From Verrucomicrobiota bacterium (GTDB lineage: Bacteria > Verrucomicrobiota > Verrucomicrobiia > Chthoniobacterales > UBA10450), in NCBI GenBank assembly GCA_003218615.1, contig QHOD01000001.1, positions 1 to 26,639 of the forward strand: DNA of 26,639 bases, read 5' to 3'. Below are positions 5,721 to 22,659 of this stretch, piece after piece (the first letter of the stretch is position 1; the number at the start of each line of letters is the position of its first letter). The position numbers and the translations under genes were made by a program. The notes under the pieces are model-generated. The model saw only the letters and a list, made by a program, of their open reading frames with translations, made no database searches and was not told where the DNA came from.

Positions 5721-5741
5721 TAATGGGTCAATGCGAGGGCG

Positions 5742-7727
5742 CTACGCCGTTTGCAAACATGCTTCGTAGCCGGACCACTCAGGCATATCTGCCAGACCGC
5801 CGCCCATGAATTGATGGTGCCAGAGCTGGGTGGCTACGACCGCAGCGAGGCCCATTTCAACCGAGAGTCGGGGCAGCGATCCGGCCCGCATTTCGCGAAA
5901 ACCTTTCCGCCAGCGCGTCACTTCGTTGACATCAAAGTAACCGGTGCGGCGGAGCGAATCCTCACTTAAAAGCTGCGCCACAAACAGCGGTTCCGGGTCC
6001 ATGTGAAAACTGTCGAGTGGTGCGCGAAAGATAACTTTGCCACGTCGAGCGATCGATTTTGGAATCCAGCGTTCCGCGAGCAGGCGCAGCAGATACTTGT
6101 CGCGGAATCCACGCAGCTTCCAACGCGGGTGCAATTTCGCGGTGAAATCAAAGACCTCCTCATCCAGGAACGGGTAACGAACTTCGACCGAGGAGTGCAT
6201 GGCCACGCGGTCGCCTTTGGCCTGTAATAGATGGCCCGCCAACAGGACCCGCGCTGCGATCCAGATGCCACGATTGAGCGGGGCCCAGCGTTTGGCTTTT
6301 TCGAGAGGAAATCCCAATTCGCCCCACGGATGGCCGTCGTTCATTACTTCGCGCATCTGCTCGGAGTAGAAACGCAGCTTCGAAATCGCGAGCAGCCCAT
6401 AGGAATCGATCCAGGCATTTTGTCCGCCTACGGAAGTTTCAACGCGCTCGCGCCATTCCGGCGGGAAATGCGGCACTTTGTTCATGCGTAGATAACAGCG
6501 GCGCGCGAGATCGCTCAGATTCACTCCCGGCACGGCGTCGAGAAATCCCATGAGCTTGGCCGCTTTGTACCATGGATAACCGACCAGCCATTCGTCGGCG
6601 CCTTCGCCGGTCAGGACGACTTTCTGGCCATTGGCATGAACGCGCTGGGCAAGTTTCAGCAAAGCGCCGCAGGCCGTGTCGATCACAGGAGCTTCGGCGG
6701 CTTCAATGAGTCGCGGATAACTTTCGAGCGCTTCGAGATCGCCGTAATTCTGGACAATCGGTGGCTTGGCTCCGATGTGCCGCGCCGACAGACTCGCTGC
6801 ACTCAGCTCATCGAACTCCGGTTTATCCACCCGCACCGTGTAAGTGTTGATCGCCGGACCTTTGAGACGGCAGGCCAGCGCAAGGATCATGCTCGAATCC
6901 ACACCGCCTGACAGATACGATCCTACTGGAACATCCGCGCGCAACCGCTCTTCGACGGCCTGCAAAAGGAGCCGCTCGAATTCATCCACCAGTGCATTCG
7001 GATTGTTTCCCCACTCCTCTTCGCCCTGCGCCGGAAAATCCATTTCCCAGTAGGCGCGTTCGGTAATGACCGGACTCGTGCCCGCACTTCCGGGCGTAAT
7101 GCGCAGGCAGTGTCCCGGGGGCAGGAGTTGAACTCCTTCGAAACAAGTTCTCGGCCCCGGCACCGCGGAGAATGTAAACACGTGATCCAGTCCCCTGCGA
7201 TCAGGTCGCGGCGGAACCATTCCTGAAGCGAGCAGGCCTTTGATTTCGGAAGCAAAAAGCAGCCAGTCGCCTTGCCGGCTCCAGAAAAGTGGCGCGATCC
7301 CGAAGCGATCGCGGCCGAGATGAAGTTGTCGTTGCCGCGCGTCCCACAAGGCGATGGCGAATTGGCCGCGCAACCGTTCCCACATCCCTTCGTGATGATC
7401 TTCCCAAATGTGCGGAATGATTTCCGTATCACAATGCGTGCGGAAGTGGTGCCCTTGCCTAACAAGTTCAGCGCGGCGTTCGACGTAGTCGAACAATTCC
7501 CCGTTAAAAACCACGAAAACGCTGCGGTCTTCGTTTGTCATCGGCTGCTGCCCATCGGCGAGGTCGACAATGCTCAGGCGTCGTGAAGCGAGTGAGATCC
7601 CTGGTTGTTCGAGAAACCCTTCCTCATCCGGACCGCGGTGAGTGATCGCACGTGCCATTCGTTGCACGACGCCTTCTGGAGCCGGGCGCTGCCCAATCAA
7701 ATCAATTATTCCCGCGATCCCGCACAT
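5742..7727 (-). CDS. asnB: Asparagine synthase (glutamine-hydrolysing)-type amidotransferase
   Basis: N-terminal MCGIAG (Ntn Cys), HRGPD, RRLSIVD, QPM, FNGE, DRFGIAPL, YLSGGVDSS (PP-loop), LTGEGADE and EVRYPFLD. Confidence 0.95.
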   Translation of the reverse strand: MCGIAGIIDLIGQRPAPEGVVQRMARAITHRGPDEEGFLEQPGISLASRRLSIVDLADGQQPMTNEDRSVFVVFNGELFDYVERRAELVRQGHHFRTHCDTEIIPHIWEDHHEGMWERLRGQFAIALWDARQRQLHLGRDRFGIAPLFWSRQGDWLLFASEIKGLLASGMVPPRPDRRGLDHVFTFSAVPGPRTCFEGVQLLPPGHCLRITPGSAGTSPVITERAYWEMDFPAQGEEEWGNNPNALVDEFERLLLQAVEERLRADVPVGSYLSGGVDSSMILALACRLKGPAINTYTVRVDKPEFDELSAASLSARHIGAKPPIVQNYGDLEALESYPRLIEAAEAPVIDTACGALLKLAQRVHANGQKVVLTGEGADEWLVGYPWYKAAKLMGFLDAVPGVNLSDLARRCYLRMNKVPHFPPEWRERVETSVGGQNAWIDSYGLLAISKLRFYSEQMREVMNDGHPWGELGFPLEKAKRWAPLNRGIWIAARVLLAGHLLQAKGDRVAMHSSVEVRYPFLDEEVFDFTAKLHPRWKLRGFRDKYLLRLLAERWIPKSIARRGKVIFRAPLDSFHMDPEPLFVAQLLSEDSLRRTGYFDVNEVTRWRKGFREMRAGSLPRLSVEMGLAAVVATQLWHHQFMGGGLADMPEWSGYEACLQTA

Positions 7728-8024
7728 AATTTCGTTCGAATAGATTAACGGCCCTCACTACCTTTTCGCGGGGGCCTTTTGACAAAGATCCTTTGGAACG
7801 TAAGAAATCTCTTGGAAGGCATCTTGCTGCCAACATCGCAGAGGACGCCGAAGAGGAAAGTTGTGAAATAATTGACGGCCAACACAATTAAGCAAAGCAG
7901 CGCCAAGAAAAAATGGTAAGGGAACGTGTGTCGAGCATATTAGAAACGAATTGATGTTGGATAAGTGAATGTTTTACCGTTATTGACGTCATAAATCCGC
8001 GACCGGATTGGTAGCTGACTTGAC

Positions 8025-11000
8025 ATGGTCACAGGCAGCGCTAATCAGTCCGCCCGTGCGGAGCAACTCACCGCCATGCAAAAAGAGCGAAAAGAGCGTA
8101 TTGCGATTATTGGAGTCGGCTGCCGTTTCCCCGGTAGCGTGAGTTCGAAGGATGCTCTTTGGAAGCTTCTCATCGAAGGCCGGGAAGGCATCGTTGAAGT
8201 GCCACCCGATCGCTGGAACGTGGCGCGATACTATGATGCTGAACCGGGCGTAGGTGGCAAATCCATCGCATCGCGGGGCGGATTTATTGACGCCATCGAT
8301 CAATTTGATCCGCAGTTCTTTGGTATCTCGCCGCGGGAAGCGCCGTACGTGGATCCGCAACATCGTCTCCTCCTCGAGACCGCATGGGAGGCGATCGAAG
8401 ATGCCGGACTCGTCCTCGATTTCGAACGTGGAACCGATCTCGGAGTTTTCGTCGGCATTTCGCATAATGATTATCAGGGAATCCAAAGTTCGAGTTTTGA
8501 TCATTTCAGTATCGGACCTTATACGCCGACCGGGAGCGCGCACAGCATTGCCGCAAACCGGATTTCGTATTGCTTGAATCTGCGCGGCCCGAGTGTCGCG
8601 ATGGATACTGCGTGCTCGTCCGCGCTCACCGCAGTTCACGCGGCGTGCGAACACATCTGGGCCGGGCGTGGAGACGTTGCCTTGGCGGGAGGCGTCACAG
8701 TGATGATTTCGCCGGGCGGGTTTATCGGGTTTTCGCAGGCTGCGATGCTTTCGCCCGAAGGCCGGTGCGCCGCCTTTGATGCATCCGCCAGCGGATTTGT
8801 CCGTGGCGAAGGTGCGGGCATGGTCCTGCTCAAGCGACTTTCGCGGGCCATCGAGGATGGCGATCCGATTCAGGGCGTGATTTTGGGGACATCGATCAAT
8901 CAAGATGGACACACCAACGGCCTTTTTTTGCCCAGCCCGGAGGCGCAAACGCGACTGATGCGAGATGCCTGCAGGGATGCTGGAATCGCGCCCGAGGCGA
9001 TCGGCTTCGTCGAAGCCCACGGTACTGGGACGGCGGTGGGCGATCCGATCGAAGCGCATGCTCTCGCGGCGGCTCTCTGTGGCAATCGCCCCGCCAACGC
9101 GCCACTACCGATTGGGTCCATAAAAACCAATCTTGGCCATTTGGAAACCGCAGCGGGCATCGCGGGGCTTCTCAAAGCGATGCTGGTTCTTAAGCACGGC
9201 CAGATTCCACCCAGTCTCCATTTTTCGACGCCGAATCCTCATATTGATTTTGAAAAGCTCAAGTTACGCGTGCCCACTCGACTCGAGCCCTTCCCGAATG
9301 GGACGGCGGAGCGCATCGCAGGTGTCAACTCGTTCGGATTCGGCGGCGCGAATGCCCATGTCATCCTGGCTGAACCTCCGCCACATCAGTCGGAAAAATC
9401 TTTGGTAATTCCAAGTTTCCGTCCATGGCCAGTGATGCTTTCCGCTCGTTCGGAAGCATCGCTCCGGACTTCGGCGGCGAATCTGAGCGCATGGGTTAAG
9501 GAACACGCCAATGCCAACGGCAGCTCGCCGGTCCTGCCGGATCTCACCTATACCCTGGGAGCCCGGCGTAATCATCACTCGCACCGGCTTACTCTTGTGG
9601 CTGACAGTTGGGCGGAACTGGCCGAGGAACTCGACGCGTTTGCGAAGAAAGAAGAAAGCCAAAAGATCCGTGCGGCTTTCACAGCGCGCCGGGAACAACC
9701 GCCGCGTATTGGCTTCATCCTGAGCGGACAGGGTCCGCAATGGTGGGGAATGGGTCGCGAGTTGATGAAGCATGAGCCGGTGTTTCGCGAGGCGATTGAA
9801 AATTGTGATGCCGCGCTCCGTCCGTGGACCAGCTTCTCGCTTTTCGAAGAGCTCGGCCGCTCCGAAGAAACATCCCAGGTGCAACGGACAGAGATTGGAC
9901 AGCCGTCCATTTTTGCCATGCAAGTGGCGCTCGCGGCGCTTTGGAAATCCTGGGGCGTTCAGCCTTCAGCCGTCGTCGGCCATAGCGTGGGAGAAATTGC
10001 GGCTGCCTGCATCGCCGGAATTTTTTCTCTCGAGGAAGCAGCCCAGATCGTCGCGCTCCGAGCGCGCCTCATGGAATCCTGCGGACGCGGAGAAGGAACG
10101 ATGCTCGCTGTTGGATTGCCTGAGGAAGAAGCCTTGGCCCTCATTGCGCGGCACGACCGCACTGTAACGATTTCGGCCTTCAACGGGCCGCGTTCCATTA
10201 CGCTCTCGGGTCCGCGCGTTTCGCTCGAGGCCATGGCCGCCGAACTCGAGGCAGAGGGAGCGTTCGCGCGACTCGTTAGGGTCGATCATCCATTTCATCA
10301 TCCGCTGATGCGGCCGGCGTCAGAGGCTTTGGAGGCTGCGCTTGCCGATTTCAAACCGCAGCCGGCCGCCGTCCCATTCTTCAGCACAGTGACGGGTGAG
10401 CGTTGCGCTGGCGAGTCATGCAACGCCGCCTACTGGGCGCGCGGCATTCGCGAGCCAGTGCGTTTTGCCTCGGCCGTGCGCGCCCTGGCGGACTTCGGCG
10501 CGAATGTGTGGTTGGAACTCAATGCCCATCCCGCGCTGGCACATCCGGTCCAGGAATGCCTTTTGTCGCGCGGAGCCAAAACCACTGTGATCTCATCGGC
10601 CCGCCGCGAGCGCGAATTTGAATCCATGCTCGAGGCTGCAATGGATCTGCATCGCGCCGGCGTTCCGCTCGATTTTTCCGCGATGACGCCTTCCCGGCAT
10701 CTCCTCTCGCTGCCCGCTTACGCATGGGAAAAGACACGATGGTGGAACGAAGCAAGCGATGCTCGAGAGGGCCGCCTCGCACCGGGTGGACGCGGCCTGT
10801 TTGATGTCCGGCTGCCACGCGCGATGCCGACTTGGATCGTTCGGCTGGACTCGCGCCACATGGCTTTTCTGAAAGATCACAAAGTAGAAAACCATGTCAT
10901 TTTCCCGGCCGCGGCATTTGTTGAGATGGCGCTTGAAGCCGGTGTGCAGTTGTTCGAGGGACAACCGTTCGTGGTTGAGGATTTCGAAATCCGCAAGCCG

Positions 11001-14000
11001 CTCATCCTGCCAGATCCGCCATCGGGCATGCAGCTCGAATTCTCATACTCGCCTAACGAACGCACCTTTTCCATCCAAAGTCGTTTTGAACAAAGCGTCA
11101 CTTGGTCCCTCCACGTAGTGGGCTCGATGCGCAGTGAGCGCACGGAATCTATCTTTGCTTCCTCAAAATGGGCGAACCCTTCTGGCACTCAATCCGTCGC
11201 GGTCGACGGCTTCTACCGCCACATGAGCGATCTGGGCTTGCGTTATGGGGATGAATTTCGATCCGTTCGCGAATTATCGGCCGGTGCCGGGCGATCCGCA
11301 GGACGCGTGGTCTTGTCGGACGCGCTGTCTCCCCGCGCGGGCGAATATGCTCTGCACCCTGTTCTCTTCGACGGAGCGCTTCAAGTTTTCTCCGCTGGTG
11401 CGGCAACGGTTGAAGGTCGTCAGGCTCGGATGAAGCTGCCGGTCGGATTTCGCCGCATTCTCTTTCTCAGCTCACCGGGCCCCTCCAGTCGGGTGTGTGC
11501 AAAGGTGCGCGAGTTCGGCGATGACTTCCTTGAAGGCGACATCACTCTATATAATGAGGGAGGAAAACCTTGCGTGCTCGTGGATGGGTTTCGGGCTATC
11601 AGCCTTTCCGGAGCAGGCCGCTCCACCGGGCCCGGCGGCACACGCGATTTAACCTATCATGTCGCCTGGCAGCGGTTGCCTAACGAGTCGTCCAAGCCGG
11701 CGCTGCCGCCGCTGCCACTCGAAGAGTTAAAAGCCACGGCACAGAGTGCACTGGACCCTGTCCTTGATCTTCGCGGCCACTCCGAACTAGAGGCGGCGCT
11801 TTGCGCTCTTGACCATCTCGCGGCCGCGCAACTGGCGCGCGGATTGCAGGAAATGGGAGTGACTCCAAATACTCCCTTTGCTGCGGCGACGCTTCAGGTA
11901 GCAGCCCCGATGCGACCTGCCTTTGAGCGGCTAATGGCCGGTCTCGTTAGGCATGGCTTGCTCCGGAAAATAGAAGCGGGATTTGAACCTGTGCCTGGTT
12001 TTGCTGAAGCGGCAGATTCCGCCGGAAAAGTTCTGCGCCATTACATCGAGAAGCACCCAGGACATCTCCCCGAAGCGCTCCTTTGCGAAGGAAACTGTGC
12101 CGAGTTGGGTTCGATTTTGCGCGGCGAAAAGGATGCGGTGCAGGTCTTGTTCTCGGGGGTGGGCGCGGAGTTGCTCGATCATTTCTATGGCGACGGCCTC
12201 TTCACCAGTCACTGGCTCGCAGCCATCGCTGCGGCGGTGAGCACAGCGGGACGAAGCCTGCCCGAAGGACGCGGCCTGCGCATTCTGGAGATCGGCGCGG
12301 GGACAGGTGGATTGGCGTCGCAGGTTCTACCACTCTTGGAGCGCGGCTTGCATTCCTACACATTCAGCGATGTCTCGGCCGCATTTTTTTCCGGCGCTGC
12401 GCAGAAGCTGGCGGCGTTTTCGGAGGTGGAGTTTAAGATTTTCGATCTCGAAAAACCAGGCGTGGAGCAGGAACTCGAAGCAGGAGCATTCGACTTCATT
12501 ATCGGGACCAACGTGCTGCACGCCGTCCGCGATGTGCGTGCCGCATTGCATAATTTGCATGGCCTGCTTGCCCCTGGGGGCAGCCTCATTTTCATGGACA
12601 CGGCTACGCCACAACTTTGGATCGAGACGGTTTTCGGCCTAACGAGCGGATGGTGGCGGTTCACCGATCGCGATCTGCGCCCGGAACAACCGTTACTCAA
12701 GCGAGCCCAATGGGAAGCCGTCTTGCAGGAAACCGGTTTTACGGAAACGGCCTCGCTGCCCGGTCTGACCGGCCCAACCGGAGGCGAAGGTCAGATCGGC
12801 CTGCTGGCACGCAAGTCTTACGAGGAAACCTCGCTGCTGCCTGAGATCCACTTGCAGGTGCCCGAGGAGAAATCATGGCTCGTTTTCGCCGATGCCTCGG
12901 GAGTGGGTGAAGGGCTGGTTTCGCGACTTCGCGCACTTGGCGCCAGGTGCCGTGTCGCCACGCACGGAAACCATTTCGAGTTCGATGGCTACGACGCTTT
13001 TACCTTGCGACCGGAGGCGCTGGAAGACTGGCAACAGCTTGCCAAGAACTGTGGGGACTCCTCACCTGAGCGCATCGTCTATCTTTGGAATCTCGATGCG
13101 CCTGTCGATGGTGCCGACATGGCGACCAATCTGGACGCACTGTTGCACCTTACGCAGGCGTTCGAATCCGCGGCGCCCGCGGCAAGATTGCGCCTGGACT
13201 TGGTAACGCGGAACGCTCAGCCCGCTGGCAACCATCCTCGACCGACGGCGGTGGCGCAGGCGCCGAGCATCGGATTGATGCGCGTGATTTTGAACGAACA
13301 TTCCAATCTCTCCTGGCGCGCCATCGATCTTCCCCCGGAACCGTCCCAGGCAGATGCGGAATCGATTTGGAGCGAGCTATCTCGCAAAGACGGGGAGCGC
13401 GAGGTCGCCCTGCGGGGTGAAGCTCGCTATGTTCGACGATTGGACCGCGGTCGCCTGTCCTCCGAACAGTGGCTCGATCCGATCCTGCCGTTGCGTCTGG
13501 AATGCCGCGAACGCGGCCGCCTCGACACCCTCCGCTTCACACCGTTCGAAATGCCGCCGTGCGGCCCGGGTCAGGTGTTGATTGAAGTGAAAGCGGCCGG
13601 AATGAATTTCCGCGACGTGCTCAAGTCGCTGGCACTTTATCCAGGCGATGCTCCGGATGCGCGAATTTTTGGCGACGAAGTCAGCGGTGTCGTCAAAGCA
13701 GTTGGCTCGGACGTCACGCACCTCGCGCCAGGAGATCGTGTGTTCGGGCTCGCCGTCTTCGGAATTGCCACCCACGCGATAGCGCGCGCGGGAGACGTGA
13801 GACGGATTCCGGCACATCTGACATTTGAAGCGGCATCAACGTTACCGGTCGTTTTCATGACCGCGTGGTATGCGTTGCGAAACGTGGGGCGGCTGCGTGA
13901 GCGCGAGCGCGTTCTTGTTCACGCGGGGGCAGGTGGAGTCGGAATGGCCGCGATCCAGATCGCGCTGCATCTTGGAGCGGAAGTGGTCGCCACCGCCGGT

Positions 14001-15737
14001 AGCCCGGGCAAACGTGCTTTGCTCAAAACGCTGGGGGTAGAACACGTAATCGACTCGCGACGCGGCGATTTTGCCGAGTCAGTGCTGAAGATAACCGCTG
14101 GCAAAGGAGTGGATTTAGTACTGAATGCACTCGCTGGGGAAGCGATCCCGATGGGTCTTTCCTGTCTCGCCGAATTCGGCCGCTTCATCGAAATTGGCAA
14201 GCGCGACATCTATCAAAACGCGCGCATCCCGCTTCGGCCTCTGCGCAATAATGCGTCGTTCCATGTCGTGGCTATGGATGCGGTTTTCCAAGGTAACGAA
14301 GAACTGACCCGCCAGATGCTGGAGGAGATTTCTGACTTGGTCGAAAAGGGTGCGTTGCGGCCGCTTCCCTTCCGGGCCTTTCCTGCCTCCCGCATTAATT
14401 CCGCGTTTCGGCTCATGGCTGGCGGAAAACACATCGGCAAGGTTGTGGTCGCATTCCCGACGCCCTTTGTTTCGCGGCGCGGTGAATTGCCCGCTCCGGG
14501 ATTCGAGGTCAAGCCGGACGGATGCTATCTCATTACCGGCGCTTTCGGCGGATACGGCAAAGTGCTGGCTCGGTGGCTGGCTGAACGCGGTGCGCGCCAT
14601 CTTGTGCTCACGAGCCGGAGCGGCGCTTCCAGTCCGGAGGCCAGCAAGTTTGTTGAGGATCTGCAGAAGCGCGGTGTGGAAGTGCGCGTTGTGTCTGCAG
14701 ATGTCGGCGCGCCCGATGACGTGCGGCGACTTTTTGCGGAAATCAAGTCCGGCGTGCAGCCGCTGCGCGGTCTCTTTCATCTTGCGATGGTAATCGATGA
14801 TGCCCCGCTCGCAGCGCTCACGCCCGAGCGCATGCGAACCGTCTTCGGACCAAAGGCGCACGGCGCATGGCTCCTCCACGAAGCAACCCGAGGAATGAAA
14901 CTCGATTGCTTTGTGATGTTCTCTTCTATCTCAAGCATTTTTGGTAATCCCGCTCAGGGAAATTACAGTGCCGCGAACGCTTTTCTCGACAGCCTGGCGC
15001 ACCATCGTCAGGCGCTCGGCCTTCCCGCGCTTACTATCAACTGGGGCGTACTCGGCGGCGAAGGCTTTGTCGCGCGCAACGAGCGTGTCGCCGATTTCCT
15101 TGCCCGGCAGGGAACAAATGCAATTTCCCCCGGTGAAGCGATGGCGCTGCTTGAGTCGTTCCTTTGTGCGGGAAGCGCCCAAGCGATTTTGATTCGGGTT
15201 GATTGGAAAAAATGGCGTCAATTCTTTAGAAGCATGCAGGAAAATCCCTTTCCGGAGCGCATTTTCGCCGCGCTTGAAAATGAGGAGACAGTCGGTGCGA
15301 CGAGTAGCTGGCGAAGCCGGATCGACGCAGCTTCTCCGGCTGAAAAGCAGGCTGTTATATGCCAGGCTGTCCGGGAAGCCGTTGGCTCCGTTTTGCGAGT
15401 CAAGCCTGACAGCCTCCGTGACGATCAACCGCTCAACGATCTTGGACTGGATTCGTTGATGGGTGTCGAAATCGAGACGTCGCTTGAAGGGGCGGTCGGC
15501 GTTGCTCTACCTCCAACGAGTCTGATGCGAGCTCGGACCATCGGTCAAATCGCGTCGTTGATCGCGGGTCACCTCGGTGGTGCGGCACCCGCCGCGGAAT
15601 CCACGCCAGTGTCGGCGCAAACCGAAGCCACTGGTGCAGTTAACCTCGATGCGATTTCCGACGAAGAAATCGAACGCCTGCTCGGGCGCGAATCCGACTC
15701 CGAAGAGACCGAAGCGATCGAAGACGCCAAGCGTTAA
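8025..15737 (+). CDS. Single-module highly reducing type I polyketide synthase, KS-AT-DH-cMT-ER-KR-ACP, no thioesterase
   Basis: KS DTACSS, HGTGT, KTNLGH; AT GQGPQW, GHSVG, HPFH; DH HKVENHVIFP, DGALQ; MT LEIGAGTGG, TNVLHA; ER NFRD, HAGAGGVG; KR ITGAFGGYG, VIDD, YSAAN; ACP LGLDSL; acidic C-terminal tail. Start may be the later MQKERK Met. Confidence 0.96.
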   Translation: MVTGSANQSARAEQLTAMQKERKERIAIIGVGCRFPGSVSSKDALWKLLIEGREGIVEVPPDRWNVARYYDAEPGVGGKSIASRGGFIDAIDQFDPQFFGISPREAPYVDPQHRLLLETAWEAIEDAGLVLDFERGTDLGVFVGISHNDYQGIQSSSFDHFSIGPYTPTGSAHSIAANRISYCLNLRGPSVAMDTACSSALTAVHAACEHIWAGRGDVALAGGVTVMISPGGFIGFSQAAMLSPEGRCAAFDASASGFVRGEGAGMVLLKRLSRAIEDGDPIQGVILGTSINQDGHTNGLFLPSPEAQTRLMRDACRDAGIAPEAIGFVEAHGTGTAVGDPIEAHALAAALCGNRPANAPLPIGSIKTNLGHLETAAGIAGLLKAMLVLKHGQIPPSLHFSTPNPHIDFEKLKLRVPTRLEPFPNGTAERIAGVNSFGFGGANAHVILAEPPPHQSEKSLVIPSFRPWPVMLSARSEASLRTSAANLSAWVKEHANANGSSPVLPDLTYTLGARRNHHSHRLTLVADSWAELAEELDAFAKKEESQKIRAAFTARREQPPRIGFILSGQGPQWWGMGRELMKHEPVFREAIENCDAALRPWTSFSLFEELGRSEETSQVQRTEIGQPSIFAMQVALAALWKSWGVQPSAVVGHSVGEIAAACIAGIFSLEEAAQIVALRARLMESCGRGEGTMLAVGLPEEEALALIARHDRTVTISAFNGPRSITLSGPRVSLEAMAAELEAEGAFARLVRVDHPFHHPLMRPASEALEAALADFKPQPAAVPFFSTVTGERCAGESCNAAYWARGIREPVRFASAVRALADFGANVWLELNAHPALAHPVQECLLSRGAKTTVISSARREREFESMLEAAMDLHRAGVPLDFSAMTPSRHLLSLPAYAWEKTRWWNEASDAREGRLAPGGRGLFDVRLPRAMPTWIVRLDSRHMAFLKDHKVENHVIFPAAAFVEMALEAGVQLFEGQPFVVEDFEIRKPLILPDPPSGMQLEFSYSPNERTFSIQSRFEQSVTWSLHVVGSMRSERTESIFASSKWANPSGTQSVAVDGFYRHMSDLGLRYGDEFRSVRELSAGAGRSAGRVVLSDALSPRAGEYALHPVLFDGALQVFSAGAATVEGRQARMKLPVGFRRILFLSSPGPSSRVCAKVREFGDDFLEGDITLYNEGGKPCVLVDGFRAISLSGAGRSTGPGGTRDLTYHVAWQRLPNESSKPALPPLPLEELKATAQSALDPVLDLRGHSELEAALCALDHLAAAQLARGLQEMGVTPNTPFAAATLQVAAPMRPAFERLMAGLVRHGLLRKIEAGFEPVPGFAEAADSAGKVLRHYIEKHPGHLPEALLCEGNCAELGSILRGEKDAVQVLFSGVGAELLDHFYGDGLFTSHWLAAIAAAVSTAGRSLPEGRGLRILEIGAGTGGLASQVLPLLERGLHSYTFSDVSAAFFSGAAQKLAAFSEVEFKIFDLEKPGVEQELEAGAFDFIIGTNVLHAVRDVRAALHNLHGLLAPGGSLIFMDTATPQLWIETVFGLTSGWWRFTDRDLRPEQPLLKRAQWEAVLQETGFTETASLPGLTGPTGGEGQIGLLARKSYEETSLLPEIHLQVPEEKSWLVFADASGVGEGLVSRLRALGARCRVATHGNHFEFDGYDAFTLRPEALEDWQQLAKNCGDSSPERIVYLWNLDAPVDGADMATNLDALLHLTQAFESAAPAARLRLDLVTRNAQPAGNHPRPTAVAQAPSIGLMRVILNEHSNLSWRAIDLPPEPSQADAESIWSELSRKDGEREVALRGEARYVRRLDRGRLSSEQWLDPILPLRLECRERGRLDTLRFTPFEMPPCGPGQVLIEVKAAGMNFRDVLKSLALYPGDAPDARIFGDEVSGVVKAVGSDVTHLAPGDRVFGLAVFGIATHAIARAGDVRRIPAHLTFEAASTLPVVFMTAWYALRNVGRLRERERVLVHAGAGGVGMAAIQIALHLGAEVVATAGSPGKRALLKTLGVEHVIDSRRGDFAESVLKITAGKGVDLVLNALAGEAIPMGLSCLAEFGRFIEIGKRDIYQNARIPLRPLRNNASFHVVAMDAVFQGNEELTRQMLEEISDLVEKGALRPLPFRAFPASRINSAFRLMAGGKHIGKVVVAFPTPFVSRRGELPAPGFEVKPDGCYLITGAFGGYGKVLARWLAERGARHLVLTSRSGASSPEASKFVEDLQKRGVEVRVVSADVGAPDDVRRLFAEIKSGVQPLRGLFHLAMVIDDAPLAALTPERMRTVFGPKAHGAWLLHEATRGMKLDCFVMFSSISSIFGNPAQGNYSAANAFLDSLAHHRQALGLPALTINWGVLGGEGFVARNERVADFLARQGTNAISPGEAMALLESFLCAGSAQAILIRVDWKKWRQFFRSMQENPFPERIFAALENEETVGATSSWRSRIDAASPAEKQAVICQAVREAVGSVLRVKPDSLRDDQPLNDLGLDSLMGVEIETSLEGAVGVALPPTSLMRARTIGQIASLIAGHLGGAAPAAESTPVSAQTEATGAVNLDAISDEEIERLLGRESDSEETEAIEDAKR

Positions 15738-15760
15738 ATGCCGGCGAGTGTGTAACCGCG

Positions 15761-17107
15761 ATGCCGGCCGATCAACGCGCTCGTCTCAAACAATGGCTCG
15801 ATCGCGGTGAAGCCCAGCTTTATCCGTTGACTTTCCCACAACGAGAACTTTGGGAAGTCTCCCCGGTGCCGGCTGAGGACAACGCGAATCACATCTGCTG
15901 TCTCATCAATGTACACGGACTCCTGACTGAGCGAGAGTGTCGCGCTGCGATCCAGCGAGTGGTCGATCGTCAGGAGGTTTTGCGTCTCTCGATCCTTCCT
16001 GGCAAAGAGCGTCCGCTCCAAATGATCCGCAAGAGTTGCGGGATCAATTTTGAATTTCGCGCAGTTGCGCCAAAAGATGCGCAACCGGAAGCGATTGAAG
16101 AATTAGCAGCAGAGATTTTCCGCGTGCCATTCGACTTCGTGCGAGGGCCGCTCTACCGCGCGGCCGACTTGCGTCGGGCGGGCAACGATCACGTGTTGGT
16201 TTTCGCGATTCATCACGCCATTGCTGACGGCTGGAGCCTGGGGGTATTAGTTCAGGACCTTTTTGCTGCTTACATCGAGGTCGTAATGGGATCGTCCGAG
16301 GCTTTGCCGCCCGTTCCACAAACCTACACGGCGTGGGGCGCAACTGAGCGCGCTTTCTGGCAACCGGCGGTTGTGGAGCAGCGCGTCGAGTTTTGGAGGG
16401 CCAAGTTAGCCGGTTCGCTTCGGATGTGGAATCTGCCGATCGCGCCGGGCCCACCCAAGCGATGGCTGTCCGCAATTCCTGCGAATCTGACTGCCGAAAC
16501 GCGCGAGCTGGCCCGTCAGACTACCGTAACATTCTTCAGCGTGCTGTTTGGGGCCTTCCAAATTGCGTTCTCCGAATGGAGCGGATTCGATAATTTGGTA
16601 GTGGGAACGCCGGTCGCCAATCGCACCAGGCAAACCGCGCGAGAAACCATGGGATATTACGCGGGTATTGTACCTCTGCGCGGGCAGATCGATCGCTCGC
16701 GGATTGCGGCCGATTATTTACGAGCGGGACATCAACAAACGATTGACTCGTTTGCCAACGCCATCCCTTTCGTCGAGTTGGTGCGCGCGCTCGGCGAGCA
16801 ATCGGAAGCGGGATATAATCCGCTTTTCGAGGTTCGCTTTGCTTTGCAGAACCATCCCATGCCGGAGGTTTCGCTGCCGAATCTTTCCGCGCGTCTGAGC
16901 ATGCGTTCGACGGGAACCGCACGTTTCCAGCTCGGATGCGAAATCACTGAAGCCGGCGACGGTCTGGAAGTCGCCTGGCTTTTTCGCGAGAATTTGTTTT
17001 CCCGACGTGACATTGAAAATCTCGATGGCATATTTCAGCGAGTTCTGGCGGGCATCTGCCGCTCGCCGGAGAACCGAATCTCTGAAGTACTGAACCGATC
17101 TCAATGA
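15761..17107 (+). CDS. Stand-alone condensation (C) domain protein / PapA-like acyltransferase
   Basis: YPLTFPQRELW, intact HHAIADG (HHxxxDG), VVGTPVANR, YNPLFEVRF. No A or PCP domain in the 448 aa. Confidence 0.92.
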   Translation: MPADQRARLKQWLDRGEAQLYPLTFPQRELWEVSPVPAEDNANHICCLINVHGLLTERECRAAIQRVVDRQEVLRLSILPGKERPLQMIRKSCGINFEFRAVAPKDAQPEAIEELAAEIFRVPFDFVRGPLYRAADLRRAGNDHVLVFAIHHAIADGWSLGVLVQDLFAAYIEVVMGSSEALPPVPQTYTAWGATERAFWQPAVVEQRVEFWRAKLAGSLRMWNLPIAPGPPKRWLSAIPANLTAETRELARQTTVTFFSVLFGAFQIAFSEWSGFDNLVVGTPVANRTRQTARETMGYYAGIVPLRGQIDRSRIAADYLRAGHQQTIDSFANAIPFVELVRALGEQSEAGYNPLFEVRFALQNHPMPEVSLPNLSARLSMRSTGTARFQLGCEITEAGDGLEVAWLFRENLFSRRDIENLDGIFQRVLAGICRSPENRISEVLNRSQ

Positions 17108-18066
17108 ACGCCGCCATCGACGAAGATTTCAGCCAGATGCATGAGCCGCACTGGGTATTGCGCGGGGCGTTTCAGCTTCTTGTTTTCGGTTTGGCTTTCG
17201 CTGAGGTGATGCTCGCTGTAACGGTGCACCGCGGATTGATCTGGCTGGCGGTGCCGCTCGTGCTTGTTGCCAGCCATTTGATGCACGGCATGCTCATCGG
17301 TCTGCACGAGGCCTCTCACGGGCTTCTCCGAAAAAGTCGCCGCCTCAATGAGTTTGATGGAGTCGTGATCGGAACGTTGAGTCTGATGAGCTTCAGTCTC
17401 TATCGCGTCGTTCATCAAACGCATCATGCGTATCTCGCGACGGAGCGAGATCACGAATTTTGGCCACTCTCTCAAACGACCGTGCCACGGTGGAAGAGAT
17501 GTCTGGCCGCATTTTTCGAGCTGAATCTCGGATTGGTTTATACTCCGTTTGTTTTCCTGCGAGCCTTCTTTTGTTCTCCTTCGCCGGTCCGAAACAAGCG
17601 TGTGCGCCGCCGCATTTGGGCGGAATTGGCGCTGACAGTTGTGACCTGGACGTTTATTCTTTGGGTGATCGCAACATTCGGCCTGTGGAAATATTTCATC
17701 TGGATGTATCTCGCGCCGGCAGTCCTGGCGGCTAATTTGCAGAGTTGGCGCAAATACATCGAGCACGTTGGAATGACGGGCGACACGGTAAATAGCACAA
17801 CTCGGAGCATCGTCGCGAAAAGCTGGCTGGGGCGGCTGGTTGCTTTCACGCTGCTTCACGAACCGTTTCATGGAGTTCATCATCAACGGGCCGGTCTGCC
17901 TCATTCCGTTTTGCCGCAACACGTTGAAAAATTGCAGCCAAAAAAACCTGGCGAACGAGCCCCGTACACAAGTTATCGTTACGCCTTGATTGAACTGGTG
18001 CGCTCCCTTGCCGATCCGCGCTTCGGGCCGCAATCGCGAACGCTTGAGTCAGTCGCCGGCAAATAA
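17104..18066 (+). CDS. Membrane fatty acid desaturase/hydroxylase-family protein
   Basis: Three His boxes HEASH, HQTHH and HGVHH with hydrophobic segments. ATGA overlap with the C-domain stop. Confidence 0.92.
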   Translation: MNAAIDEDFSQMHEPHWVLRGAFQLLVFGLAFAEVMLAVTVHRGLIWLAVPLVLVASHLMHGMLIGLHEASHGLLRKSRRLNEFDGVVIGTLSLMSFSLYRVVHQTHHAYLATERDHEFWPLSQTTVPRWKRCLAAFFELNLGLVYTPFVFLRAFFCSPSPVRNKRVRRRIWAELALTVVTWTFILWVIATFGLWKYFIWMYLAPAVLAANLQSWRKYIEHVGMTGDTVNSTTRSIVAKSWLGRLVAFTLLHEPFHGVHHQRAGLPHSVLPQHVEKLQPKKPGERAPYTSYRYALIELVRSLADPRFGPQSRTLESVAGK

Positions 18067-18115
18067 AATGTTTTTTTGGGGGCCATGTCTGCTCTCGGCT
18101 GCGAATCCCCATTAT

Positions 18116-18661
18116 ATGAAGATAAACATCACCAAAATTGGCGTGGCTTTGCTCGCCGTTGGAATTTGTATCTGGTCGACAGAGGTGCGCGCGCAGGCGA
18201 CCACGACCGTGACCACGACGAAGGGCGCATTCACAGAGTATGTTCCCGGCTCGGAAACGATGGTTGTGAGAACTGAAACGAGTTCGGCCCCGTTGCGTTA
18301 CGTGGTAAGCAAACAGACGACGATTGTTGATGAATCCGGTGCGCCGGTCGCGATCGAGCGCATTTCACCGGGTAGTCCGCTCTCGATCCAGTATACAGGT
18401 ACCGGCGAACATCTCGTAGCGTCACGCATCGTTGTGCAAAGGCCGGCCGCAGTAACCACCGAACCCGTGACAACCGCGCCCGTAGCGGCCCAGCAGGACA
18501 CGACCACGTCCACGACCACGACACGCGCTCTGAGCCATGAGGAAAAACATGCTCTAAAAGAGCAACGAGAGCATCGTAAGAAGGCAACGAAGGAAGAGAT
18601 CGAAAAGCAGAAGGATGCCTTGGACAAGGCCAAGGATAAAATCGACGACGGCAACGATTGA
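18116..18661 (+). CDS. Secreted hypothetical protein (beta-rich domain, Thr-rich linker, charged helical tail)
   Basis: Signal peptide MKINITKIGVALLAVGICIWSTEVRA from ATG at 18116; the 17990 start overlaps the desaturase. Confidence 0.8.
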   Translation: MKINITKIGVALLAVGICIWSTEVRAQATTTVTTTKGAFTEYVPGSETMVVRTETSSAPLRYVVSKQTTIVDESGAPVAIERISPGSPLSIQYTGTGEHLVASRIVVQRPAAVTTEPVTTAPVAAQQDTTTSTTTTRALSHEEKHALKEQREHRKKATKEEIEKQKDALDKAKDKIDDGND

Positions 18662-18723
18662 ACGAAGTTCGTTCGCTGTTCAGAGTGCTGGCAGATTCTC
18701 GGGAGAGCTGACAGCTTAAGCAG

Positions 18724-19413
18724 GTGACGCCGCCTTCTGCCAGCGCCCTCCTCGAGGCCAAAGCTCTGACCCGCGAGTTCGACGAAGGGCACGTCAAGGC
18801 CCTGCGCGGAGTCGATTTTTCCATCAAGGAGGGCGACTTCGTTGCCATTGTTGGACCGAGCGGATGCGGTAAATCGACCTTGCTGCAATTACTAGGTGCG
18901 TTGGATCGACCGACATCCGGAACCCTTTTCTACCGCGGAATATCGCTGCCGGATCATCCCAATCCCGCAGCATACCGTGCTCGCGAGGTCGGGTTTATTT
19001 TCCAGGCGTTTCACCTCCTGCCGACTTTCACCGCGGCCGAGAACGTGCAAATCCCAATGTTCGAGACGGATCGCTCGGCTTCTGAGCGACGCGAGCGCGC
19101 CTTCGAATTGCTAAAACTGGTTGGCCTGGAACATCGCCTCGATCATTTTCCATCCAAACTTTCCGGTGGCGAGCGACAGCGTGTCGCCATCGCGCGCAGT
19201 CTTGCTAATGAGCCGTCGCTGCTACTCGCGGATGAACCGACCGGTAATCTTGACAGTGAAAACGCTCATTCGGTTTTCGACCTCATTATTAGTCTGCAAC
19301 AAGAGCAGGGTCGCACCATGGTGCTTGTCACTCACGATCCAACTATTGCCGGGCGAGCGGGAAGGACCCTTCGCATGATGGACGGTCGAATCGTCTCGGA
19401 CGATAAACGATGA
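18724..19413 (+). CDS. ABC transporter ATP-binding protein (LolD/MacB-like)
   Basis: Walker [10 protein letters not shown], signature [13 protein letters not shown], Walker [17 protein letters not shown]. Confidence 0.95.
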
Positions 19414-20528
19414 CCTTTTTTACTGTTGTCATCCGCGGTCTCTGGCGTCGGCCCTTGCGGACGGGATTGACTCTCGCGGGAATTTCCATCGGCATTGCTG
19501 CCGTCGTGGCGTTGGTCGGGATGTCTCGAGGTTTTGAGAAAGGCTGGCAGGTTGGATTGAAGGCGCGCGGAACCGATATCGTCGTCTCTAACAGAGGGGG
19601 ATCGCTCACGCCGAAGCCGTTCGACGCCTCCGTCCGCGATCGGATCGCCGGCCTTCCGCACATCGCCGCGACCTGCAACCTTCTCGTGGAGGTGACCAGT
19701 GTTGAAGAGTCTGATCTGATGATTCTCTCCGCTCGCGAGTGGGGAGGATTTGCATGGAACAATCTGGAACTCGTCTCCGGGCGTATGCCGCGCGATGCCA
19801 CGGAAGAGGCAGCGGTTTTGGGTCAGACTGCGGCAGAAGTGCTCAAGAAAAAAATTGGCGACCCGATTCAGATTGAAACGAAGAAACTAACCGTCGTCGG
19901 AATCGTGAAGGGGGGCGCTCTCGTCGAAGACGGTTCGGTCATTCTTTCTTTACCGCTCTTACAAGGAATCATCGGCGCTCCCAACCAGATCAACGCAATC
20001 GATATTGGAGTGACGCCTTCGACTACCGAGCAACAAATCAAGGAACTTACTCGACAGATCGAACAACTGGTCCCGGAAGTTCGCGCCGTGACCGTGAGCG
20101 AACACCTCAGCCACAATGAGGGATTTCGGCTCGTTAAGGCCATGAGTTGGGGCACGTCTCTCCTCGCCATCCTTGTGGGTGTGCTTGGTGTGATGAACAC
20201 CATGCTCATGACCGTTTTCGAGCGTACCCATGAAATCTGTGTGCTGCTCGCCGTTGGTTGGACGCGCGGGCGAATCATGAGAATGATTCTTTACGAATCC
20301 GCGCTGCTTGGACTTTTCGGCGGTGTTATTGGCGTAGCTATTGGTGCCATCGGAGTCCAGGTGCTGAGCGCAACGCCGGCGATTAAAGGGTTATTGCAGC
20401 CTGACCTCAGCATTGCGCTCCTTGGCCTTTCTGTCGTCATCGCCATTGCGGTCGGAATTATCAGCGGTCTCTATCCCGCGTGGAGGAGTTCGCGGCTAAA
20501 TCCAAGCCAGGCTTTGCAAGCCGGATGA
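19410..20528 (+). CDS. ABC transporter permease (FtsX/MacB/LolE-like)
   Basis: RRPLRTGLTLAGISIGIAAVV, periplasmic domain, GVMNTMLMTVFERTHEI..L.A.GW, GLYPAWR...L.P..AL. ATGA overlap with the ATPase. Confidence 0.93.
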   Translation: MTFFTVVIRGLWRRPLRTGLTLAGISIGIAAVVALVGMSRGFEKGWQVGLKARGTDIVVSNRGGSLTPKPFDASVRDRIAGLPHIAATCNLLVEVTSVEESDLMILSAREWGGFAWNNLELVSGRMPRDATEEAAVLGQTAAEVLKKKIGDPIQIETKKLTVVGIVKGGALVEDGSVILSLPLLQGIIGAPNQINAIDIGVTPSTTEQQIKELTRQIEQLVPEVRAVTVSEHLSHNEGFRLVKAMSWGTSLLAILVGVLGVMNTMLMTVFERTHEICVLLAVGWTRGRIMRMILYESALLGLFGGVIGVAIGAIGVQVLSATPAIKGLLQPDLSIALLGLSVVIAIAVGIISGLYPAWRSSRLNPSQALQAG

Positions 20529-21361
20529 GAACCGCGCAAACCAATCGCTCAATGCGAATCCATCCTGGGAAGATATCTTTAGCCGTGAAACCTTTCTTAC
20601 CTCTCGCCATCGCCGCTGCGGCATTCTGCCTTATCTCCATTCGGGGCGCTGAACCCGCACCGCCCGCAATGTCGGCCGCAGAACTTGCTGATCAGCTGGA
20701 CGTTGTCAGCCAAGGGAGCGCCTTAATCCGCACCAAGCTTGAGGTCCGATCGCTCGCGGGCGCCAAGCGCGTCCTGCAACTTCAGATCAAGCAACGCCGG
20801 ACGAAGACGACAAGCGATCTTGCTTATCAAGTGCTTTGGCCCGATGAGCATAAGGGCGAAGCCGTTATCTTGCACCAAGCCCATGGTGTGGCGAAAGGCT
20901 CAATCATCGTTCCGCAGCAGCCAGTTCGCGCGATCAAGGCCTCGCAAATGAACGAGGGATTGTTCGACAGTGATCTCTCCTATCAGGACGCGGTGGAGAA
21001 TTTCTTTGCCTGGAAAAAGCAGGCCCTCGTCGGTTCGGAGACAATCAACGGAGTGAATTGCCAGATTCTCGAATCCAAGCCGGACAGCTCCTCCGTTTCC
21101 ATCTATGCCAAAGTGCGCAGCTGGATTGATCCTCAGCGTTTCGTGCCGATGCGGATCGAGAAATATTCATCCTCAGGCGAACTCGTCCGCCGCATTGATG
21201 TCACTCGAGTCGCGCGTGATGAAAAGCACCATCCGATTCCAGCCAGTCTCACCGTGCATGGGCCGCGGAAAAACAGTGTGACGGAATTCAATGGCGCGCG
21301 CATCGACCAGGACGTGCAGTTCACCGACGCCGATTTCACAGCTGCGGGCGTTTTGAAGTAG
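20525..21361 (+). CDS. Outer-membrane lipoprotein-sorting (LolA-like) periplasmic protein
   Basis: Signal-like segment PFLPLAIAAAAFCLISIRG, then LFDSDLSYQD, ETINGVNCQILESKP, YAKVRSWID and PMRIEKY, typical of the LolA_like family. ATGA overlap with the permease; exact start uncertain. Confidence 0.8.
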   Translation: MRTAQTNRSMRIHPGKISLAVKPFLPLAIAAAAFCLISIRGAEPAPPAMSAAELADQLDVVSQGSALIRTKLEVRSLAGAKRVLQLQIKQRRTKTTSDLAYQVLWPDEHKGEAVILHQAHGVAKGSIIVPQQPVRAIKASQMNEGLFDSDLSYQDAVENFFAWKKQALVGSETINGVNCQILESKPDSSSVSIYAKVRSWIDPQRFVPMRIEKYSSSGELVRRIDVTRVARDEKHHPIPASLTVHGPRKNSVTEFNGARIDQDVQFTDADFTAAGVLK

Positions 21362-21369
21362 CCGCACGG

Positions 21370-22659
21370 TTACCTGTTCACAGCGCTCTCAACCAGCCGG
21401 CCCGCATTGAGCAGGTCCGCCTCGGCGAGTCGCGGGCCGATCAATTGCAGGCTCGTAAAGGAAACCTTCGCGCCGGACAGGGGCACGGGGACCGCCAGCG
21501 CCGGGTTGCCCGCAAAATTGACCGCCACCGTGTTTTGCACCCGAAGCACGTACGCGTCAAGGATCCCTATTCTCAAATTGAGCAGCGGAAGTCCCGGTGG
21601 TGTTTTTTGAAGGGTTGGCAAAGCGATGAGGTCCACCTTCTCGAAAACATTGCGCAGCGTCTGCTGCCACGCGCTCCGCCTGGCCAAGGCGCTGCGGTAA
21701 CCCGTAGTGTAGTTTATCTGGCCCAGTCGAATTACAGCCTTGGTTCGAGCCGACACGCCTAGTGCGAATTGCAATCGTTCGTCACTAATCCATGTACCCG
21801 CTGAAGCAACGGTAGTGCCGTCCTTCTTCGCTTGCTCAAATTTGTCGCTCAGGCTCTCGTCCAACTCGACGACTTGGAATCCTGCTTTGGCAAGCGCATC
21901 GTCAATCGCCTGATCGATTTTTGGATCAGTACCCTTCAGCTTGAGGCGTCCGACCCGGATGCTTCGCCCAGTTGGCTTTGCCGCCTTGGCCGCCGCATAC
22001 TTGGCTGCAAAACCATCTTGAAGAAGCTCCATCCCTTGAACGGTGTGAGCGATGTCTTTCCCCATCGGGCCCACGGTGTCGAGATGCTTAGGCTCAACCG
22101 GATAAACACCTTCGATCGGAATCAAGCCGTACGTCGTCTTCAAGCCGACGACACCACAACAAGCGGCAGGCACACGAATTGAGCCGGCCGTGTCCGTCCC
22201 AAACGCCACGTCCGCCATTCCGCTCGCCAATGCGACCGCGTTTCCAGACGAGGATCCGCCCGGAATCAGATTTCGCTTCAACGGATTCACGGGCGTCCCG
22301 AAATATTCATTCAAGCCGGACGGTGAGATCGCGAATTCGGTCATGTTTGTTTTGCCGACTATCTGCAAGTTACGCTGCCGCGCGATCGCCAGACACGGGG
22401 CATCCTTTTCCGCGGGCTTGTGGGTTTCGGAAAAGATCCCCGAACCGGCGGTCGTAACTACGCCCTTCATATCAATGTTATCCTTAATCGCGAGCCGCAG
22501 TTCTTTGCGATTCGGATCCGGCGGCCAGTAGTCGATGAAGGCGCGGTTGCCGGGTAGATTCTTGTTGAAGGGCGGCAAAATTGAGCATCCGCCGCATAGG
22601 ACGAGCGACGCCAGCACAATCGGCAACCATTTAAAGCCAATGCGGCCGCATTGTTTCAT
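21370..22659 (-). CDS. Amidase-signature family amidase, predicted lipoprotein
   Basis: AIKDNI (Lys), VGKTNMTEFA, PGGSSSG and GTDTAGSIRVPAACCGVVGLKTT (Ser-cisSer). From ATG at 22659 the N-terminus MKQCGRIGFKWLPIVLASLVLCGGC ends in a lipobox-like Cys. Confidence 0.9.
   Translation of the reverse strand: MKQCGRIGFKWLPIVLASLVLCGGCSILPPFNKNLPGNRAFIDYWPPDPNRKELRLAIKDNIDMKGVVTTAGSGIFSETHKPAEKDAPCLAIARQRNLQIVGKTNMTEFAISPSGLNEYFGTPVNPLKRNLIPGGSSSGNAVALASGMADVAFGTDTAGSIRVPAACCGVVGLKTTYGLIPIEGVYPVEPKHLDTVGPMGKDIAHTVQGMELLQDGFAAKYAAAKAAKPTGRSIRVGRLKLKGTDPKIDQAIDDALAKAGFQVVELDESLSDKFEQAKKDGTTVASAGTWISDERLQFALGVSARTKAVIRLGQINYTTGYRSALARRSAWQQTLRNVFEKVDLIALPTLQKTPPGLPLLNLRIGILDAYVLRVQNTVAVNFAGNPALAVPVPLSGAKVSFTSLQLIGPRLAEADLLNAGRLVESAVNR

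Follow-up and report, generated by a model that had tools for sequence, protein, structure and literature searches.

The phthiocerol dimycocerosates (PDIM), sulfolipids and polyacyltrehaloses of mycobacteria carry methyl-branched chains made by fully reducing, single-module polyketide synthases (PKSs; Mas or Pks2-5) that lack a thioesterase (TE) domain. The chain is released by a free-standing enzyme of the condensation superfamily (PapA), and a dedicated exporter (DrrABC or MmpL) works with a periplasmic lipid carrier of the LolA fold (LppX or LprG). In cyanobacteria, the heterocyst glycolipids are likewise envelope lipids made by a PKS (HglE type), and they leave through an ATP-binding cassette (ABC) exporter with an FtsX-type permease (DevBCA-TolC). 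The aryl polyene and flexirubin clusters of diderm bacteria include LolA-like and exporter genes. A locus that recalls each of these systems is present on contig QHOD01000001.1 of the Verrucomicrobiota assembly GCA_003218615.1. The contig was analysed over its whole 26,639 nt (the 26.6-kb record, here called the window); it belongs to a 2.29-Mb metagenome-assembled genome (MAG) that is 85% complete, and the names of its closest relatives place it in the Chthoniobacterales, near Candidatus Udaeobacter. The locus centers on a single-module PKS, and its genes are a real and conserved cassette. Our reading, to which we give a probability of roughly 0.6, is that this cassette is a self-contained unit, typical of Verrucomicrobiota in soil and freshwater, that makes and exports a polyketide lipid. 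Its genes and the region that separates the two divergent ones are as follows.

4914 to 5720, plus strand: periplasmic TPR protein, 268 aa, with a signal peptide (TPR and RMD1-3 Pfam matches); convergent with asnB
5742 to 7727, minus strand: AsnB-family glutamine-dependent amidotransferase, 661 aa (GATase_7 and Asn_synthase)
7728 to 8024, no strand: 297-nt intergenic region from which asnB and the PKS gene diverge; promoters for both genes presumed from sequence
8025 to 15737, plus strand: single-module type I PKS, 2570 aa, KS-AT-DH-cMT-ER-KR-ACP with an acidic C-terminal tail (Pfam, motifs)
15761 to 17107, plus strand: free-standing condensation (C) enzyme of the nonribosomal peptide synthetase (NRPS) type, 448 aa (Condensation, E 1.6e-63)
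17104 to 18066, plus strand: membrane di-iron desaturase/hydroxylase, 320 aa (FA_desaturase); ATGA overlap with the C gene
18116 to 18661, plus strand: small secreted protein with Thr-rich and Lys/Glu-rich stretches, no Pfam match; accessory
18724 to 19413, plus strand: LolD/MacB-type ABC ATPase (ABC_tran)
19410 to 20528, plus strand: MacB/LolCE-type permease, with a four-transmembrane FtsX domain and a periplasmic MacB_PCD domain
20525 to 21361, plus strand: LolA-superfamily periplasmic protein with a signal peptide (PF17131, E 1.9e-23)

An earlier note, made from the DNA letters and here called the sequence-only reading, had described most of this arrangement, and the open reading frames (ORFs), coordinates and domains that it listed are all present and intact by ORF list and Pfam. 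Its operon-like coupling is seen as ATGA overlaps at the C/desaturase, ATPase/permease and permease/LolA-like junctions; the C gene starts 23 nt after the PKS stop, and asnB does diverge from the PKS gene across the 297-nt gap. The ORF for the small secreted protein is also there, although its start is most likely at 18116 (MKINI..., a signal peptide) and not at 17990. For the LolA-like gene the most probable start is 20525 (alternative, 20480). As that reading stated, the window holds neither a phosphopantetheinyl transferase (PPTase) nor an acyl-AMP ligase; a single AcpS-type PPTase is encoded in the source genome, on another contig.

Compared with the mycobacterial systems, the cassette has the same kind of TE-less, fully reducing, single-module PKS for a methyl-branched chain, the same kind of free-standing condensation-superfamily enzyme for its release, and a dedicated exporter with a LolA-fold carrier. 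However, the methyl groups would come from S-adenosylmethionine (SAM) through an in-line C-methyltransferase (cMT), with a malonyl-type AT, whereas mycobacteria use methylmalonyl-CoA, and the exporter is of the MacB/LolCDE type rather than a resistance-nodulation-division (MmpL) or DrrABC transporter. The cassette also has an AsnB-like amidotransferase, a membrane desaturase and a TPR protein that the PDIM system lacks, has no fatty acyl-AMP ligase in the locus, and differs in the envelope of its host, a diderm verrucomicrobium. With the heterocyst system the resemblance lies in the exporter: the ATPase scores 189 bits with the DevA model and the permease matches DevC weakly, both below the family cut-offs. 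Unlike that system, the cassette contains neither a DevB membrane-fusion protein nor a glycosyltransferase, and it does contain a LolA-like carrier. Aryl polyene and flexirubin clusters are, like the cassette, diderm lipid clusters with their own LolA-like protein for outer-membrane delivery, but they use type II enzymes of the fatty acid synthase (FAS) kind to make polyenes, whereas the cassette encodes a type I, fully reducing, methylating PKS. No characterised cluster of the cassette's composition is described in the literature searched, as the sequence-only reading had surmised.

The system had also been called an orphan, and here the wider comparison gives a different picture. Relatives of the C protein were sought in one genome per species, and tblastn confirmed 536 stretches over these species-representative genomes, the best 80 of which were fetched as loci; the cassette is conserved in at least 80 loci. 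In the 80 fetched loci the core order is the same (the asnB-like gene divergent from PKS, C, desaturase, ABC ATPase, MacB/FtsX permease and LolA-like genes), and the hosts of this core are Chthoniobacterales, Prosthecobacter and Luteolibacter. When each gene is counted only in loci whose flank extends to its position, the PKS gene is found in 74/75, divergent asnB in 47/51, the desaturase gene in 74/74, and the ATPase, permease and LolA-like genes in 63/65, 55/59 and 53/56, respectively. The small secreted ORF, which had been taken as part of the set, is found in just 10/70 loci and can thus be considered accessory rather than core. The amidase gene that follows the cassette in the window is present in 17/52; it and the gene for a 291-aa secreted protein are specific to the clade of the source genome, accompanying the cassette in close relatives only, and there is no other widely conserved neighbor among the 80 loci. 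The best 80 C relatives range from 98% down to 57% identity and nearly all are labelled Verrucomicrobiota, including Chthoniobacterales, Prosthecobacter, Luteolibacter and Terrimicrobiaceae; the few with other labels are taken to be binning errors.

Distribution within the order is patchy. Of the 301 genomes in the order sample, 80 have the cassette (49 of the 220 that are of high quality), as do 15/39 genomes of the source family and none of the four congeners. In an even sample of 401 genomes across the phylum it occurs in four; the three besides the source genome all belong to one family of another order. This patchiness agrees with the description of a published Udaeobacter MAG, which was reported to be without a large PKS cluster (PMC7343977). 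Near-identical DNA is also encountered in soil itself: in 20 or more metagenome runs, which come from no fewer than 16 studies, 59-98% of the sampled words of positions 14000-21400 are present. Contigs from soil RNA libraries, when placed on positions 4100-24000, are 95-99% identical to the window and cover most of the locus; their coverage is even over the genes of both strands, and one contig (6493-8957) spans the divergent intergenic region.

Several MAGs built from long reads carry PKS or C genes that are broken by frameshifts or in-frame stops (L039, L053, G445, G665, G576, G490 and G597). The breaks represent either assembly error or decay; G445, which is 100% complete, has four stops in its C gene.

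In the PKS, Pfam identifies KS, AT, DH, methyltransferase, ER (ADH_zinc_N), KR and PP-binding domains, in this order on one polypeptide. This is the full domain set of a highly reducing PKS or FAS, with no loading module and no TE, as had been claimed. Catalytic motifs were read off the translations, families were assigned by Pfam and NCBIfam cut-offs, and the nearest solved proteins were found by sequence search. The KS has a normal Cys-His-His set (TACSS, EAHGTGT and NLGH). Since the AT has the motifs GHSVGE and HPFH, it is of the malonyl and not the methylmalonyl type by established motif rules. The DH contains H-x3-N-x4-P, in which His and Pro are kept and Gly is replaced by Asn, and HPxLxDxxxQ. 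The cMT has LEIGAGTGG and NVLHA, and from these motifs it looks active. The remaining domains have HAGAGGVG (ER), IDD and YSAAN (KR) and LGLDSL (ACP). The best solved match is mycocerosic acid synthase (Mas) at 1089 bits, followed by modular PKSs at ~825 bits and, below these, LovB and animal FAS among others. Like Mas, the protein has KS, AT, DH, ER, KR and ACP domains with intact catalytic residues and no TE; unlike Mas, it does not have a methylmalonyl-specific AT.

The PKS could act non-iteratively, adding one unit to a fatty acyl starter derived from FAS and so giving a 2-methyl-branched acyl chain, two carbons longer, for the C enzyme to transfer. There is just one module, without a loading domain and with a KS whose catalytic set is normal, no feature of the sequence dictates iteration, and many bacterial cis-AT modules act once. 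However, the nearest solved relative, Mas, is iterative, and the domain order is that of the iterative fungal highly reducing PKSs and of animal FAS; we give a single elongation less than even odds.

The C protein matches PF00668 with 215 bits over profile positions 3-444 of 456, and its HHAIADG motif is intact. Its best solved matches, Txo2 and TycC, make it a canonical NRPS-type C domain. It is not an acyltransferase of the PapA5 type, since it scores 22.3 bits with the PapA5 model NF006787 (cut-off 396) and lower with other PapA5 models. Consequently, the parallel with PDIM that the sequence-only reading had drawn holds at the level of the synthase, where Mas at 1089 bits stands well above the next match at 825, but not at that of the condensation enzyme. 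Two terminal segments are conserved from Udaeobacter-like genomes to Prosthecobacter and Luteolibacter: the motif DL(D/E)A(I/L)S.EEI.RLLG in the acidic tail of the PKS, and RARLKQWL at the N-terminus of the C protein. Because both are conserved across this whole range, they fit a docking pair, by which the C enzyme may be brought to the end of the PKS.

A Condensation-domain match other than the C protein itself is not found in the 85%-complete source genome, and neither the window nor that genome yielded an adenylation-peptidyl carrier (A-PCP) partner for it. The enzyme resembles VibH of vibriobactin synthesis in being a stand-alone protein with an HHxxxDG motif and no adjacent A or PCP domain, and free-standing C domains of the VibH type join an acyl group, held on a carrier, to an amine that is free. 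By this likeness, a soluble nucleophile would be the simplest acceptor. Here, the donor would be the ACP of a PKS bearing a reduced fatty chain. The only adenylation-plus-carrier pair found in the genome, a Dlt-like AMP-binding enzyme and its carrier, was considered as a partner and rejected, as it sits in a polysaccharide locus with an MBOAT protein and glycosyltransferases. This set (an AMP-binding enzyme, an 80-aa carrier and an MBOAT protein amid four glycosyltransferase genes; source-genome contig C181, 1-9888, L091) probably acylates or alanylates a polysaccharide and has no apparent link to the PKS. An exhaustive HMMER search of cluster representatives with the C protein returned multi-module NRPSs only, with many C domains, and is uninformative on distribution.

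The AsnB-like protein begins with MCGIAG, which provides the Cys2 nucleophile, contains an SGGVDS PP-loop, and at 401 bits passes the NCBIfam asparagine-synthase model (TIGR01536; cut-off 267). Among solved proteins it matches best the hydroxyamidotransferase 7ylz (166 bits over residues 1-389), an enzyme that amidates the carboxylate of a finished polyketide acid. E. coli AsnB aligns with the AsnB-like protein over the glutaminase domain only, the synthetase half being too divergent. The association of the gene with the cluster, which had been proposed from its position, stands: it is divergent from and adjacent to the PKS gene in the 47/51 loci given above, and no ortholog was found in the four cluster-less congeners, whose AsnB proteins are paralogs of 33-39% identity. 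The gene is therefore cluster-specific, and the idea that it is a housekeeping bystander can be rejected. The TsnB9-type enzyme (7ylz), OxyD and FdmV are, like it, AsnB-fold enzymes encoded beside a PKS, although its similarity to the TsnB9 type is modest.

Rather than tailoring the product, the AsnB-like enzyme might provide the asparagine that the C enzyme uses as its acceptor or might, like OxyD, make a malonamyl starter that places a primary amide at the beginning of the chain. Malonamyl starters are made by AsnB homologues in the oxytetracycline pathway, and the PKS here is without a loading module. In addition, the score with the asparagine-synthase model is well above its cut-off, and the gene is the sole AsnB-family gene found in the 85%-complete genome. 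Yet the synthetase half does not align with that of E. coli AsnB, and the best solved match, if at 166 bits only, acts on a finished polyketide acid. A role in supplying an acceptor or starter is thus rather doubtful, and amidation of the product is the function that we favor.

The desaturase matches PF00487 with 107.5 bits and has the three His boxes HEASH, HQTHH and HGVHH. A sequence search gave no solved relative for it, and a look-up in the ESM Atlas gave no finer assignment.

The exporter genes encode a MacB/FtsX (type VII) ABC transporter whose ATPase is a separate protein, with PF12704, PF02687 and PF00005 all above their cut-offs. The ATPase and permease are of the same type VII ABC kind as housekeeping LolCDE, but fall below the Lol equivalog cut-offs (ATPase, 247 bits with the LolD model against 308; permease, 61 bits with the lolCE model against 362), and this identity was rejected. 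The LolA-like protein, which has an N-terminal hydrophobic segment, matches PF17131 with 83.5 bits (cut-off 30); its solved matches are 4z48, 9tp6, 3bk5 and 3buu.

The range of 5742-21361 delimited by the sequence-only reading is incomplete, since the TPR gene, which lies just outside it, is the eighth linked member of the cassette. In the order sample, 61 of the 80 genomes with the C gene have a TPR ortholog (E<=1e-50), against 21 of the 221 without it; the ortholog is usually on the same contig as the C gene, at a distance of 9-16 kb. These are counts without a statistical test, from genomes that are related and hence not independent. In distant relatives, including Prosthecobacter, the TPR gene adjoins asnB. 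In the four congeners, neither a C gene, nor a type I PKS, nor a TPR ortholog was found.

Taken together, the cassette suggests the following pathway. A fatty acyl starter from primary metabolism would be elongated by the PKS in one or several rounds, with SAM-dependent alpha-methylation and full reduction, to yield a saturated, alpha-methyl-branched chain on the ACP. The C enzyme, docking on the acidic tail of the PKS, would then join this chain to the amine or hydroxyl of a free acceptor that is not bound to a carrier. The membrane di-iron enzyme may desaturate or hydroxylate the lipid, and the AsnB-like enzyme may turn a carboxylate of the product or of its head group into a carboxamide. 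For export, the MacB/LolCDE-type transporter would pull the lipid from the inner membrane and the LolA-fold carrier would deliver it through the periplasm to the outer membrane or to the outside, perhaps with the help of the linked periplasmic TPR protein.

Several points count against this pathway and the self-contained unit that it describes. Canonical NRPS C domains normally take an acceptor that is bound to a carrier, and an A-PCP partner could be encoded in the 15% of the genome that is missing. For the PKS ACP and tail (residues 2430-2570) with the C protein, the predicted complex has a score of 0.01, a value that counts neither way on binding. The only PPTase found in the 85%-complete genome is of the AcpS type, and a Sfp-type enzyme was not found there. 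The sequence does not reveal the acceptor, the type of bond, how many rounds of elongation take place or how long the chain is. Pumps of the MacB type also carry soluble toxins and antibiotics out of the cell, so that destinations other than the envelope are possible. Finally, DNA carry-over is possible in the soil RNA libraries, because their coverage is even and crosses the divergent region.

The product could instead be a bioactive lipid that is secreted (for example, an antibiotic, a surfactant or an N-acyl amide-type signal) rather than a structural lipid of the envelope, with the pump and the LolA-like protein serving secretion or self-protection. MacB pumps export toxins and macrolides, and the patchy occurrence of the cassette (80/301 genomes of the order, 0/4 congeners), its position on an insert at a tRNA gene (see below) and its variable genomic position among genomes of the same family would all suit such a product; furthermore, the accessory hydrolases that recur beside it could activate or degrade an exported molecule. 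Yet a LolA-fold carrier and a periplasmic TPR partner point to hand-over in the periplasm and not to simple efflux. The core is conserved like a glycolytic enzyme (83-85% identity to other genera for C, 75-84% for phosphofructokinase, Pfk, in the same genomes), which fits a long-standing cellular role, and the 80 loci contain no conserved regulator or resistance gene. Thus, a secreted bioactive product seems unlikely.

The reading that we prefer, a cassette that makes and exports a polyketide lipid, can be extended to a more specific picture, which is offered tentatively and is itself doubtful. Diderm Verrucomicrobiota, including the relatives of Udaeobacter, a very abundant soil genus, might have an undescribed class of outer-membrane lipids in which a SAM-methylated PKS chain is joined by a free NRPS-type C enzyme to a small amine or polyol and capped with a carboxamide by a dedicated AsnB-like enzyme. 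Such a lipid would cross the periplasm by a private Lol-like route of MacB-type pump, LolA-fold carrier and TPR partner, and would be encoded on a portable unit of 16-20 kb that is able to sit in a tRNA gene, as a Gram-negative counterpart of PDIM.

Soil Chthoniobacterales of the Udaeobacter type have been described as some of the most dominant bacteria in soil (Willms 2020). They are largely uncultured and have small genomes; here, a genome of ~2.3-2.7 Mb spends ~16 kb on this one pathway. An envelope lipid, if that is what the cassette makes, would represent a new class of lipids that might serve as a biomarker for the group, and its export would show a machine of the Lol/MacB type moving a lipid that is not attached to protein, in a Gram-negative parallel to the logic of mycobacterial PDIM. 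An amide lipid that is secreted would instead be a metabolite of wide occurrence in soil. Since the cassette is compact and self-contained, heterologous expression is realistic. To the sequence-only reading, the present analysis adds the TPR member, the co-occurrence of asnB, the variability of the small ORF, figures for prevalence, and the finding that the cassette lies on an insert in tRNA-Asn whose site is empty in three congeners.

This insert, from 4236 to 24009, is bounded by a 39-nt direct repeat (4197-4235 and 24010-24048; 95% identical) that equals the 5' half of tRNA-Asn, the left copy lying 86 nt after a tRNA-Met gene (4034-4110). Besides the cassette, the segment and its ends comprise the following features.

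4197 to 4235, plus strand: 39-nt copy of the 5' half of tRNA-Asn (direct repeat D1); left end of the insert, truncated ancestral tRNA-Asn
21370 to 22659, minus strand: amidase of the amidase signature family, with a signal or lipoprotein-like N-terminus; accessory, restricted to the clade of the source genome
22829 to 23704, minus strand: secreted protein, 291 aa, function not assigned; accompanies the amidase in close relatives (14 loci)
24011 to 24085, plus strand: intact tRNA-Asn(GTT); its 5' half (24010-24048) forms the right-hand repeat copy and marks where the insert ends on the right

In three of the congeners (G532, G683 and G592), the homologs of a DUF72 gene and of a gene for a 547-aa protein are separated by only 0.8-2.7 kb, in which tRNA-Met and tRNA-Asn lie. 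In the window the same two genes (2984-3940 and 24726-26369) are 20.8 kb apart. G592 aligns unbroken to positions 4024-4235 (tRNA-Met, the spacer and the 5' half of tRNA-Asn) and aligns separately to 24008-24086 and the downstream flank. Because of the short spacing in the congeners, the 39-nt repeat and the break in the G592 alignment, the segment is recognized as a 19.8-kb insert in the middle of tRNA-Asn, at a site that is empty in these three congeners.

As in genomic islands, a tRNA repeat is present at both ends and an empty site is available for comparison. However, Pfam finds no integrase domain in any ORF of the segment, and the duplicated part of the tRNA is the 5' half and not the 3' part expected of tRNA-integrated islands. 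We conclude that the segment integrated site-specifically at some point. The same site holds other partial tRNA copies in the congeners: a 42-nt copy of the 3' half of tRNA-Asn in G592 (L101 677-718), and 32-nt copies of the 3' end of tRNA-Met in G532 (L099 415-446) and G683 (L100 2320-2351). This pattern suggests that these copies are scars of other integrations and that the site is an integration hot spot. A recent transfer between genera is not indicated, because the C protein is no more similar across genera than is Pfk, and this idea was set aside.

The segment may also have been ancestral at the site and lost from the congeners by recombination between the 39-nt repeats, with no horizontal gain. 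The comparison of C with Pfk and the lack of an integrase would suit such a history. So would the arrangement in a relative (L022, CAWGOG010000004.1, 14991-21326), where the cluster adjoins the same DUF72-DUF2062-carboxypeptidase-Pfk block in an orientation inverted relative to the window; there the amidase end faces the DUF72-to-Pfk block, and no tRNA is detected between them. However, duplication of half of a tRNA gene at both ends is a signature of site-specific integration, the other partial tRNA-Met and tRNA-Asn copies mark the site as a hot spot, and three genomes of this family carry the cluster on a contig other than that of the pfk locus. An ancestral segment with later loss has less than even odds, though it is by no means far-fetched.

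Hydrolases recur beside the cassette. The amidase of the window most likely starts with MKQCGR (22659), and its N-terminal region has at its end LVLCGGC, a possible lipoprotein signal. The enzyme shares its superfamily with the fatty acid amide hydrolases, which is suggestive beside a putative amide-lipid pathway. In Prosthecobacter, an alpha/beta hydrolase of ~530 aa (PGAP1-like/lipase-like) is encoded between the desaturase and the ATPase (L057 12255-13850; L064 8257-9864). A hydrolase of this kind adjoins the cassette in G522, a genome of the order from the genus coded g208 (L102 17455-19101); it is homologous to the Prosthecobacter protein over its full length (30% identity over 489 aa). 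Next to it is a gene for a chalcone-isomerase-like protein, of a family of fatty-acid-binding proteins (L102 19135-19815). The source genome has a homolog of 35% identity that is unlinked to the cassette (contig C187, 2815-3897). These accessory hydrolases suggest that the exported product may be remodeled or cleaved outside the cytoplasm.

Just within the left end of the insert lies a 190-aa ORF (4345-4917) with no Pfam match. Part of it resembles an N-terminal domain that often precedes TPR repeats, while the remainder looks out-of-frame, and the ORF is probably a gene remnant. Soil RNA and DNA contigs over this ORF differ from the window by single-base indels at 4686, 4781, 4797 and 4831.

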